Positions 6,583-11,850 of a DNA stretch of 39,454 bases are shown one piece after another. The stretch's first letter is position 1, and each line of letters starts with the position of its first letter. The stretch comes from a virus (lineage: Duplodnaviria > Caudoviricetes): the IMG/VR virus record IMGVR_UViG_3300042879_001567, positions 1 through 39,454 of that record. One strand, written 5' to 3'. The position numbers were made by a program, and so were the translations under genes. The notes under the pieces were generated by a model. The model was given only the letters and a program-made list of their open reading frames with translations. It did no database searches and had not been told where the DNA came from.

Positions 6583-7098
6583 TCAGAATGGCGTGTAGGT
6601 TGGGTTGGATCGGTTCTCTTCAAGTTCCTTCAGCCTTCGCCGCCGCCCCCCCTTCCGTGAAGGGGGGGCTATGGGGGGATCTATATGTGAATGTGGATGT
6701 GGATACGGACGGTCACCGCTACGGTCACCGTCACGGTCACCGTCACGCTGACCGTGCTTTCGCTTCGCATTTGTGGCCTCAGCGGCCATCTGGCGCGCCT
6801 TACGCACCTTCTCGGTCTTTGCGCGCTCACGTTCCATGCGCGGATGCACCCATGCTTGCACACGGTCACCGTCACGGTCACCGTGCGGAACGAGTCGCGC
6901 ACGGATCTGCGACCACGCCTCTGGTGTCATCCCTCCCGTGATTCTCTGTAACTCGTTGTTGTCACTCGGGATGCATCCGTTTATCCACGCATAGCACAGC
7001 AGTCGCGTGTAGGCGCCGACCACCTCAGGCGCCATCGACATGGTGCTGGCGATGAAATCCGGCACGTACAGGGGAAACCATGGCAGGTCCGTTGCCAT
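6583..7098 (-). CDS. DUF1376/YdaU-like replication initiator (replisome organiser)
   Basis: MATDLPWFPLYVPDFIASTMSM...GAYTRLLCYAW...GCIPSD...L.RI; HPRMERER coil. Contains iterons. ATG 7098 with GGAG 6 nt upstream. Confidence 0.8.
   Translation of the reverse strand: MATDLPWFPLYVPDFIASTMSMAPEVVGAYTRLLCYAWINGCIPSDNNELQRITGGMTPEAWSQIRARLVPHGDRDGDRVQAWVHPRMERERAKTEKVRKARQMAAEATNAKRKHGQRDGDRDGDRSGDRPYPHPHSHIDPPIAPPSRKGGRRRRLKELEENRSNPTYTPF
6709..6885. repeat. Six 12-bp near-palindromic iterons (ACGGTCACCGTC), putative replication origin
   Basis: Four tandem units at 6709-6756 and two at 6862-6885, inside the initiator gene as in lambda O. Confidence 0.7.
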
Positions 7099-7112
7099 CG
7101 TGAACTCCAACA

Positions 7113-7192
7113 GACCGGGGCGGGACAGGGAGCGGCTGCAAGCAACCTATCCCGCCCTCGGTCATTGAGATGTCGAGCAGTTGCAGCCGCTC
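7113..7192 (-). promoter_or_regulatory. Structured 5' leader of the initiator mRNA (interleaved 12-bp and 17-bp helices)
   Basis: 7192-7181 pairs perfectly with 7141-7130. 7163-7146 pairs with 7129-7113 (one bulge, one U-G). Confidence 0.65.
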
Positions 7193-7209
7193 TGCGCGCA
7201 GTATATCAT
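7181..7209 (+). promoter_or_regulatory. Sigma70-type promoter for a small RNA, overlapping the divergent promoter
   Basis: TTGCAG (7181-7186), 17-nt spacer, TATCAT (7204-7209). Confidence 0.55.
7200..7208 (-). promoter_or_regulatory. Extended -10 promoter for the initiator operon
   Basis: TGaTATACT. The predicted start (~7192) coincides with the first base of the leader helix. Confidence 0.6.
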
Positions 7210-7215
7210 CTCCTC

Positions 7216-7354
7216 GTCGGTTGTGTCGCCGGGATGCCCCAGGCTTGTTGCCTGTTCGGCGCCGCGACTGACAACGGGAAGCCACGGACGGCTCCCGAAC
7301 TTTGCCCCCGGAACGCGCCCCGCGTTGATCTCACGATCCGCGGGGCGTTTCTTT
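7216..7354 (+). ncRNA. Putative ~140-nt structured small RNA
   Basis: Promoter, three hairpins (7216-7272, 7275-7297, 7316-7347) and a U-tail. G-U pairs form only on the plus strand. No credible ORF. Confidence 0.55.
7316..7354 (+). terminator. Intrinsic terminator
   Basis: CGCCCCGCG/CGCGGGGCG stem followed by TTTCTTT. Confidence 0.7.
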
Positions 7355-7490
7355 CGTCGTTGTCCGACCCGAAACGACCTTGTCCGACCTTGTCCGCCCC
7401 GGCTCGTATGTGAGCGAATCCGCCACACTTGTGACGATGTGTAGTACTTCCGCTCCAACGACCGACATTCCGTAGCAGTACCCTCCCCGT

Positions 7491-7979
7491 ATGCGCGTCA
7501 CGCTCGTGGATACCGAGGTACGGATATGCAAGTGGTTGGCCGCGCAGCGGTTTGCGGTTGCCCGCCGTTCCGGCGTGAGCGACAGGCAGATGGGGCCGCA
7601 GTCGAGCGAGCAGACCGACCTTGACGGGATCGCCGGCGAGTTCGCGTTCTGCAAGGCCATGAACCTCTGGCCCGACATGACCATCGGCGCACGAAGCGGG
7701 GGTCACGATGCCGCGTTCGGAGCAACGTCCATCGACGTCAAGACCACGCGGCACGCAAGCGGGCATCTGCTCGCTACCACCAAGAAATCGGACACCGCCA
7801 GCGACGTGTATGTCCTCGTCATCGGGACGATCCCGGAGTTCCGCGTGGTGGGCTGGGCATCAGCGGCGATGCTGTTCCACGAGGACAACCTCAGCGACTT
7901 CGGGCATGGCCTTGGATACGCTCTGCCGCAATACAGGCTGCGGCCGCTCCATGAGCTGCGGGACAGCGCACGAACTTAG
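7491..7979 (+). CDS. Putative PD-(D/E)xK nuclease-fold phage protein
   Basis: GIAGEFA...GHD...IDVKTT motif pattern. Confidence 0.55.
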   Translation: MRVTLVDTEVRICKWLAAQRFAVARRSGVSDRQMGPQSSEQTDLDGIAGEFAFCKAMNLWPDMTIGARSGGHDAAFGATSIDVKTTRHASGHLLATTKKSDTASDVYVLVIGTIPEFRVVGWASAAMLFHEDNLSDFGHGLGYALPQYRLRPLHELRDSART

Positions 7980-11289: not shown

Positions 11290-11630
11290 ATGTCAACGTG
11301 AACGTCGAGGTGGCCGTGATGAGCGACCTGTTCAAGGATGAGGCCATTGCCGAGTACGTGTCGAGCAACGACATCATCGCGGTGTTCGAGGCGCGGTGGG
11401 AGCGCGACCACTACGAGCAGCACCATTACCACGGCTCACAGCAGCACTGGTACTGGGAGCTGAAGGACACCGTGCTGCTCGAGCTGCGGCTCAACGGCAC
11501 GGTCCTGAAGCTCGACGCCGAGGTGCCGAACGACTTCCCCATGTCGGAGGTGCTTGCCGCGATGATGCGGCGCGAGGTCCGCAACGAGATCGAACTCGTC
11601 GGCCCGAAGGCACGGAGGATCACGCAATGA
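11286..11630 (+). CDS. Hypothetical protein, 114 aa
   Basis: ATGA overlap with the upstream gene. Confidence 0.65.
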   Translation: MNVNVNVEVAVMSDLFKDEAIAEYVSSNDIIAVFEARWERDHYEQHHYHGSQQHWYWELKDTVLLELRLNGTVLKLDAEVPNDFPMSEVLAAMMRREVRNEIELVGPKARRITQ

Positions 11631-11674
11631 GATACCTGTCCGTGTGCAGCGGCACGAACGAAGGAGGCGCGTGA
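11627..11674 (+). pseudogene. 15-codon remnant of a C5 DNA cytosine methyltransferase
   Basis: MRYLSVCSG matches the motif I N-terminus of phage Dcm-like enzymes. The RBS (GGAGG) is intact, but the ORF ends after 15 aa. Confidence 0.55.
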
Positions 11675-11850
11675 TGGGCAACCTGGCAGTCACGCTCTCG
11701 AGCAGGCATACCGTGGTGCTGGTCGAGCCGAGCGGCCGGCGCATCGCGGTCATCATGCCAAACGACAAGACCACCGGGAAGGTGCAGCTCGTGCTGCGCG
11801 TCGATCCCGAGATCAGGGTGATACGAGAGAAGAAGGAGCCGACGAAATGA
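11674..11850 (+). CDS. CsrA/RsmA-like small RNA-binding protein, 58 aa
   Basis: Size and beta-strand pattern. GKVQLVLRVDPEIRVIRE resembles CsrA GxQVRIGIxAPxxVxIxREE. Confidence 0.5.
   Translation: MGNLAVTLSSRHTVVLVEPSGRRIAVIMPNDKTTGKVQLVLRVDPEIRVIREKKEPTK

Follow-up and report, generated by a model that had tools for sequence, protein, structure and literature searches.

The DNA analysed here, called the window throughout, is a complete phage record of 39.4 kb (39,454 nucleotides) with a terminal repeat of 127 nt and a G+C content of 64%. The portal, terminase and capsid genes are located on its minus strand, and the capsid has its closest counterparts, at about 80%, in a Limnohabitans phage and in spring-water Caudoviricetes. 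The RNA unit under study occupies the gap between a DUF1376 gene on the minus strand (6583–7098; PF07120, E 1e-10), the product of which we take to be the replication initiator, and a DUF5843 gene on the plus strand (7491–7979). A blastn search of positions 7000–7600 against cultured phages gave no match. Within the initiator gene, 12-bp palindromic repeats encoding Gly-Asp-Arg-Asp and a perfect 11-bp inverted repeat (at 6708–6757, 6861–6886 and 6645–6669) are possibly origin iterons. Right after the terminator of the RNA unit, at 7355–7400, lie 10-bp direct repeats of varying copy number; locus L002, which is near-identical to the window, has an extra copy and is missing the DUF5843 gene downstream.

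The plus strand of the gap displays a predicted sigma-70-type promoter (7181–7209), in which TTGCAG (7181–7186) and TATCAT (7204–7209) are separated by a spacer of 17 nt. It is followed by a predicted non-coding RNA of ~139 nt (7216–7354), and the unit is not entered from any preceding plus-strand gene. These elements had been described in a first-pass annotation made from the letters of the window, and in their geometry they were recovered as described: the predicted +1, G7216, opens a long hairpin of 57 nt (P1, 7216–7272) with three G-U pairs among its first ten pairs (at 7219, 7222 and 7224), and a second hairpin follows (P2, 7275–7297). The predicted intrinsic terminator (7315–7354) is composed of a GC stem (7315–7348) and the tract TTTCTTT, an interrupted U-tract which ends at 7354. 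For positions 7216–7360 a folding energy of -76.3 kcal/mol was calculated (z = -4.6), which none of 200 shuffled sequences reached, and folding is stronger for the plus than for the minus strand (-75.2 versus -66.6). TTGCAG agrees with the -35 consensus at only three of six positions, and a consensus scanner applied to the window picked up a promoter on the minus strand but missed both the plus-strand promoter and the terminator, so that these two rest on comparative evidence. No conserved small ORF was found inside the RNA. A covariance-model search of the window returned a single strong match, the RNA unit itself. Rfam at gathering score gave no match in the window or in 20 related loci; with E values up to 10, the region 7050–7500 yielded seven weak chance matches, RF01731 not being among them.

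Relatives of the initiator were searched first, providing 22 loci, with diverged copies of the RNA unit in L018, L019 and L022. A search with a pattern built from its two conserved blocks turned up 60 viral loci, 53 of which were judged true, while seven (L030, L034, L035, L048, L059, L066 and L073) were left out as coding chance matches; of eight new loci found subsequently, seven were dropped before counting. Together with the window and L139, the 53 loci represent 41 distinct RNAs. Owing to kinship and partial redundancy among the loci, locus counts overstate the number of independent events. The RNA core occurs in two settings, namely as a stand-alone unit (47 loci) and immediately behind a DUF932 gene, adjoining its stop codon (3′-UTR form, 8 loci). 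All 47 stand-alone loci contain the arrangement TTGC(A/G)N-16/17-TANNNT with unrelated spacers, which is found in 0 of 492 control tiles of the window. In L036 and L051 an insertion displaces the leader-derived TTGCAN, and a new TTGCGC stands 17 nt before the -10 hexamer. Five of the seven core-carrying whole genomes examined (G002, G004, G005, G008 and G009) show no terminase, portal or capsid homology to the window; the RNA element thus crosses virion types. By covariance models, the RNA is present as a single copy in each genome that has it; no copy was detected in the near-complete relatives G023 and G024, where the slot is taken by other short promoter–terminator cassettes or by nothing recognisable. 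In the first model (R1) the terminator pairs were three columns off register, leaving its results mostly sequence-based; the corrected model (R2), run on four loci and on the genomes of nine further phages besides the window, gave the same picture. A pattern scan of GTDB produced 15 matches, all judged to be chance.

The predicted helices covary. In a plain MAFFT alignment of the core (26 rows), 92.9% of the cells are paired, double changes occur in 10 of 15 pairs, and the covariation score of 0.411 compares with 0.124 for shuffled and at most 0.098 for slid alignments, these controls ignoring kinship. The full-length alignment has 13 rows, taken from the 41 RNAs and made up of one P1 subgroup and two metagenome copies; it is 98.4% paired, with double changes in 8 of 29 pairs and a score of 0.211 versus 0.091 after shuffling, again with controls that ignore kinship. 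In alignment A5, row L024 is incomplete and without P2. Double-sided changes are seen in six of eight counted pairs of the terminator, whereas in P2 the base of the stem covaries and the apex is near-invariant. P1 covaries within subtypes, and little of it was recovered by RNAalifold from the mixed-subtype alignment A1. The structural conservation in relatives, on which the first-pass annotation had let its small RNA depend, is thus found in both the core and the full-length alignment. Promoter geometry in 47 of 47 loci and helix covariation uphold, on comparative grounds, its discrete plus-strand RNA gene of about 140 nt, and support the view that the unit is a conserved stand-alone phage sRNA gene with promoter and intrinsic terminator.

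What is conserved differs from what had been emphasized. The first-pass annotation singled out the G-U pairs of the long hairpin; however, L196 has Watson-Crick pairs in place of two of the three, and P1 is variable between relatives and can be absent, as in the 3′-UTR copies and in L043 and L200, which consist of promoter and core only. The conserved features are instead a GCC-ACGGAC-GGC hairpin with a predicted exposed GGA, the nature of which went unrecognized in that earlier reading, a block GCCCCCGGA(A/U) containing a second GGA (7304–7313), and the terminator. The hexaloop of P2 (7284–7289) is of the CsrA-type AYGGAY form. When the loop letters were left free, ACGGAC was found in nine of nine family members among 12 metagenome matches and in 15 of 15 among at least 121 viral matches (24 of 24 in all), three and at least 106 matches, respectively, having been excluded as non-family. 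The sole loop variant found is AUGGAC (L139), in which AYGGAY and the GGA are retained. For the GGA of the P2 loop, the predicted unpaired probability averages 0.98 over 43 RNAs (minimum 0.15). The second GGA, situated 23–32 nt after the first, is predicted to pair for the most part with the tail of the terminator (mean unpaired probability 0.13), and freeing it would cost 1.6–13.4 kcal/mol. Each RNA contains two to five GGA; of the loop and linker GGAs scored, only that of P2 is predicted to be exposed. Isolated C-AYGGAY-G hairpins are not rare, with 29 in 760 kb, module copies included.

The small RNA and the initiator had been proposed to form a compact switch with mutually exclusive transcription. 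In the window, a predicted extended -10 promoter of the initiator operon (TG-A-TATACT, 7200–7208, minus strand), obtained by promoter scan, indeed overlaps the plus-strand promoter, the two -10 hexamers having 2 bp in common (7204–7205). The overlap recurs at identical offset in 20 of 47 loci, and two polymerases could presumably not occupy both hexamers simultaneously. However, in the other 27 loci the opposite promoter lies 74–152 nt away or was undetected, and in L196 the RNA subtype of the window stands behind TTGCGG-17-TACATT, with a separate, non-overlapping promoter. Moreover, pure occlusion would require neither the sequence nor the structure of the RNA to be conserved, and no regulator or operator for bistability was identified. 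That blocking initiator transcription is the main purpose of transcribing the unit is therefore very improbable, and the family does not support the switch; local promoter interference within the subgroup of the window is possible. The predicted starts (~7216 on the plus and ~7193 on the minus strand) give divergent transcripts without overlap. Phage lambda OOP, P1 C4 and P4 CI are antisense RNAs, encoded by short RNA genes beside replication or control operons. The RNA described here likewise adjoins a replication operon, but its predicted transcript runs away from the initiator mRNA instead of being antisense to it, and no conserved phage target was found. As it does not overlap that mRNA on the opposite strand, it does not correspond to a cis-antisense, OOP-like RNA.

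Read on the opposite strand, the -35 hexamer TTGCAG corresponds to the loop of a hairpin in the leader of the initiator mRNA. This leader is itself structured (7113–7192, minus strand) and contains a 12-bp inverted repeat. Here the 5′ arm and loop of a first hairpin (7192–7175) are complementary to positions 7141–7130 within a second hairpin (7163–7113). The complementarity of 10–12 bp covaries and is found in 12 of 12 leaders tested; the leader is a separate conserved structured RNA and a candidate regulator of initiator translation in cis. The second hairpin precedes the initiator ribosome site. The same complementarity is observed in G002 and G005, which have unrelated virion genes; it has no Rfam match.

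CsrA is known to target GGA in short hairpin loops, with the SELEX consensus RUACARGGAUGU, and a CsrA dimer can bridge two sites 10–63 nt apart (PMC3856055, PMC7366521). Two AYGGAY hairpins on one stem, often in multiple copies, characterize the TwoAYGGAY RNAs (RF01731; bioRxiv 10.64898/2026.09.22.753630), a family proposed, but unproven, as CsrA-binding (PMC4333381). The phage RNA shares with them an AYGGAY loop closed by C-G and the exact 12-mer GCCACGGACGGC of P2, which occurs 25 times in the alignment supplement of PMC2864571; two passages there that contain it stand under the TwoAYGGAY header and have two AYGGAY loops each. However, the folds of the 41 distinct RNAs show one AYGGAY hairpin and no enclosing stem, and the RNA is single-copy, phage-borne and equipped with its own promoter and terminator. 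Since TwoAYGGAY RNAs have two hairpins on one stem and are often multicopy, and since there is neither a common basal stem nor a match to RF01731, membership in this family was ruled out. A second comparison concerns the CsrA sponges CsrB/CsrC and RsmX/RsmY/RsmZ, the transcription of which is under the control of GacA/UvrY. RsmX/Y/Z are 100–400 nt in size (PMC7366521), and CsrB has 22 potential CsrA sites (PMC3856055). The phage RNA likewise extends from promoter to terminator, falls into the size range of RsmX/Y/Z and has a predicted exposed loop GGA, but it is phage-encoded, has no Rfam match and contains only two to five GGA, with one predicted to be exposed, instead of many sites.

On this basis we favor, with a probability of roughly 50%, the reading that the RNA is a conserved stand-alone gene product of about 140 nt which presents itself to a CsrA-family protein as a minimal decoy or ligand. 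Transcription would start at ~7216 and terminate at ~7354, leaving the loop exposed, while P1 would act as an exchangeable 5′ stabilising stem. The exposed GCC-ACGGAC-GGC hairpin could then bind a CsrA-family dimer, either that of the host or the likely CsrA homolog of the phage, and the second GGA might provide a conditional second site for the dimer. Titration of the dimer would relieve translational repression of the CsrA type during infection, and the promoter overlap would reflect compact packing with, at most, local interference. Fold prediction agrees with this as regards the exposure of the loop GGA, and sequence comparison as regards an own promoter and intrinsic terminator. Against a decoy speaks the single predicted exposed GGA, whereas known sponges have many sites. 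In addition, L005 has lost the P2 loop by a deletion of the interior, and the CsrA consensus would tolerate more variation than is seen across the loop and in the GCCCCC run, an excess of invariance that could be due to another ligand or to base pairing.

A candidate RNA partner is encoded on the plus strand of the window at 11674–11850. This 58-aa protein, the gene of which was picked by eye from the ORF list, is 39% identical to a protein of L168 that matches PF02599 below cut-off. The window genome itself gave no hit to PF02599, and the 58-aa protein matched nothing in Pfam, also not at E 0.1. Matches to PF02599 were obtained for three of 16 aligned family members (best 5.7e-6) and for five of seven further relatives, all five below cut-off. 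The family amounts to at least 52 protein clusters, and JGI naming assigns CsrA to two of 52 profile matches. Arg51 is invariant in all 16 rows and is located within the last predicted strand; by the monomer model it may be the counterpart of E. coli CsrA R44 at the end of strand 5. The model displays five β-strands and no helix (pLDDT 88), whereas CsrA proteins combine five strands with a helix H1 in an intertwined dimer. A PDB sequence search with the family profile did not find CsrA, nor was CsrA listed in fold searches with the monomer model, the best match of which was an unrelated chain (Z 5.3, r.m.s.d. 2.9, 55 aligned residues). Homodimer prediction scored 0.36 against a mark of 0.42. 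The protein is likely a divergent CsrA homolog. Phage-borne csrA/rsm genes have been described in 30 of 2517 phage genomes (PMC7366521). The likely CsrA-like protein of the window resembles their products in its conserved arginine after the fifth strand but is divergent, below the Pfam cut-off and without a predicted C-terminal helix; furthermore, the portion of PMC7366521 considered here names no phage-encoded partner RNA.

The csrA-like gene is present in the window and in 18 of 24 further records with the stand-alone RNA, including all four that are at least 90% complete. The two are not strictly linked, since three of four RNA-less relatives also have the gene while none of six records with the 3′-UTR form does. 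Directly 5′ of the gene, at 11627–11674, lies a 15-codon ORF starting MRYLSVCSG, presumably a stub of a DNA methyltransferase start.

Possible target sites were found in phages with the 3′-UTR form. In three of them CCGGAY occurs just before a Shine-Dalgarno site five, five and two times, as compared to none in seven other genomes; the sites lie in early-gene leaders, in a layout like that of two-site Csr operators. Several of those in G002 read GCCCCCGGAYG, the same letters as the conserved block of the RNA, which suggests a common CGGA-reading protein for leaders and RNA. These leader sites are absent from the window and from window-type genomes, and consequently no target mRNA was identified for them. 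Repeated early-gene cassettes have leaders in which a CCGGAY-loop hairpin stands a short distance ahead of the Shine-Dalgarno sequence (L353:799–5560 in G002, L354:1884–5450 in G004 and L357:2747–4060 in G005). Taken further, the data could indicate a phage-encoded Csr circuit, in which divergent phage CsrA proteins are combined with a minimal, portable RNA decoy of one to two sites. This decoy would move between unrelated phages of one host group, either as a gene of its own or attached to an early mRNA as its 3′ end, and would time early-gene translation or hijack the CsrA network of the host. We put this forward as a doubtful, speculative extension.

The occurrence of the core after the DUF932 stop codon in eight loci also fits a different role, in which P2, GCCCCCGGA and the terminator constitute a protein-bound or structural 3′-end module (serving RNA stability or processing, or recognized by a ligand that is not CsrA). 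Some phages would use it to end an early mRNA, others to end a short RNA. Such a module would be in line with the core being more invariant than the CsrA consensus, with the predicted pairing of the linker GGA to the terminator tail and with the fact that no csrA-like gene was seen in phages with the 3′-UTR form. However, it leaves unexplained the dedicated conserved promoter in 47 loci and the promoter-plus-core form of L043 and L200, and the loop corresponds to the TwoAYGGAY/CsrA-type motif; we consider it rather unlikely. Invariant C-rich blocks beside a terminator and embedding in a 3′-UTR are traits of seed-bearing sRNAs. The RNA resembles these in both respects, and might thus pair in trans with a host mRNA, using as seed either the invariant C-rich block before the terminator (the GCCCCCGG block) or the P2 loop; an unchanging host target would account for the invariance. 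In eight phage genomes, however, no conserved mRNA pairing target exceeded shuffled controls: the best non-self duplexes with start regions remained at shuffled level, differed between genomes and involved mostly spurious ORFs, and no conserved perfect complement was found in phage genomes. Overall, base pairing appears unlikely.

The weak U-tracts, in turn, would suit a unit that serves the variable slot following on the plus strand as leader or attenuator, or one left over from an early-gene cassette after loss of the gene. In L027 and L037 the DUF5843 start codon follows directly on the RNA tail, and other short cassettes fill the slot in RNA-less relatives. Against this, the downstream gene is variable or, as in L002, absent, the next gene after the 3′-UTR form has a promoter of its own, and the covariation of P1 and P2 is not expected of an empty relic, which renders this explanation quite improbable.

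No description of a phage-encoded CsrA decoy RNA was found in the open literature searched; 10.1101/2025.07.22.666180, as far as covered, treats chromosomal csrA-tldR loci. The RNA is an uncatalogued family built on a known motif, phage csrA genes having been known beforehand (PMC7366521). The 8,495 anonymous candidates of PMC10690425, or else the motifs described in PMC5737381, could already include it. The decoy or ligand reading offers a small, well-conserved and directly testable pair, the 58-aa protein and the RNA core of ~80 nt, for which natural variants are at hand (without P1, with deleted loop, and as 3′-UTR form). Binding, if true, would bear on the unproven idea of AYGGAY hairpins as CsrA sites; should it fail, there is still a phage RNA family, uncatalogued and invariant in its core.

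Two further observations concern the surroundings of the unit. In RNA-less relatives the same slot, on the strand opposite the initiator, harbors promoter–short RNA–terminator cassettes of ~50–125 nt, several with UGACC before the terminator (approximate positions L003:1–170, L004:2290–2400, L008:2140–2260 and L011:2090–2280). In L068, L044 and L075, a conserved, apparently non-coding block of ~300 nt without Rfam match, located ~250–600 nt upstream of the RNA, replaces the DUF1376 gene and is possibly an alternative replication module.
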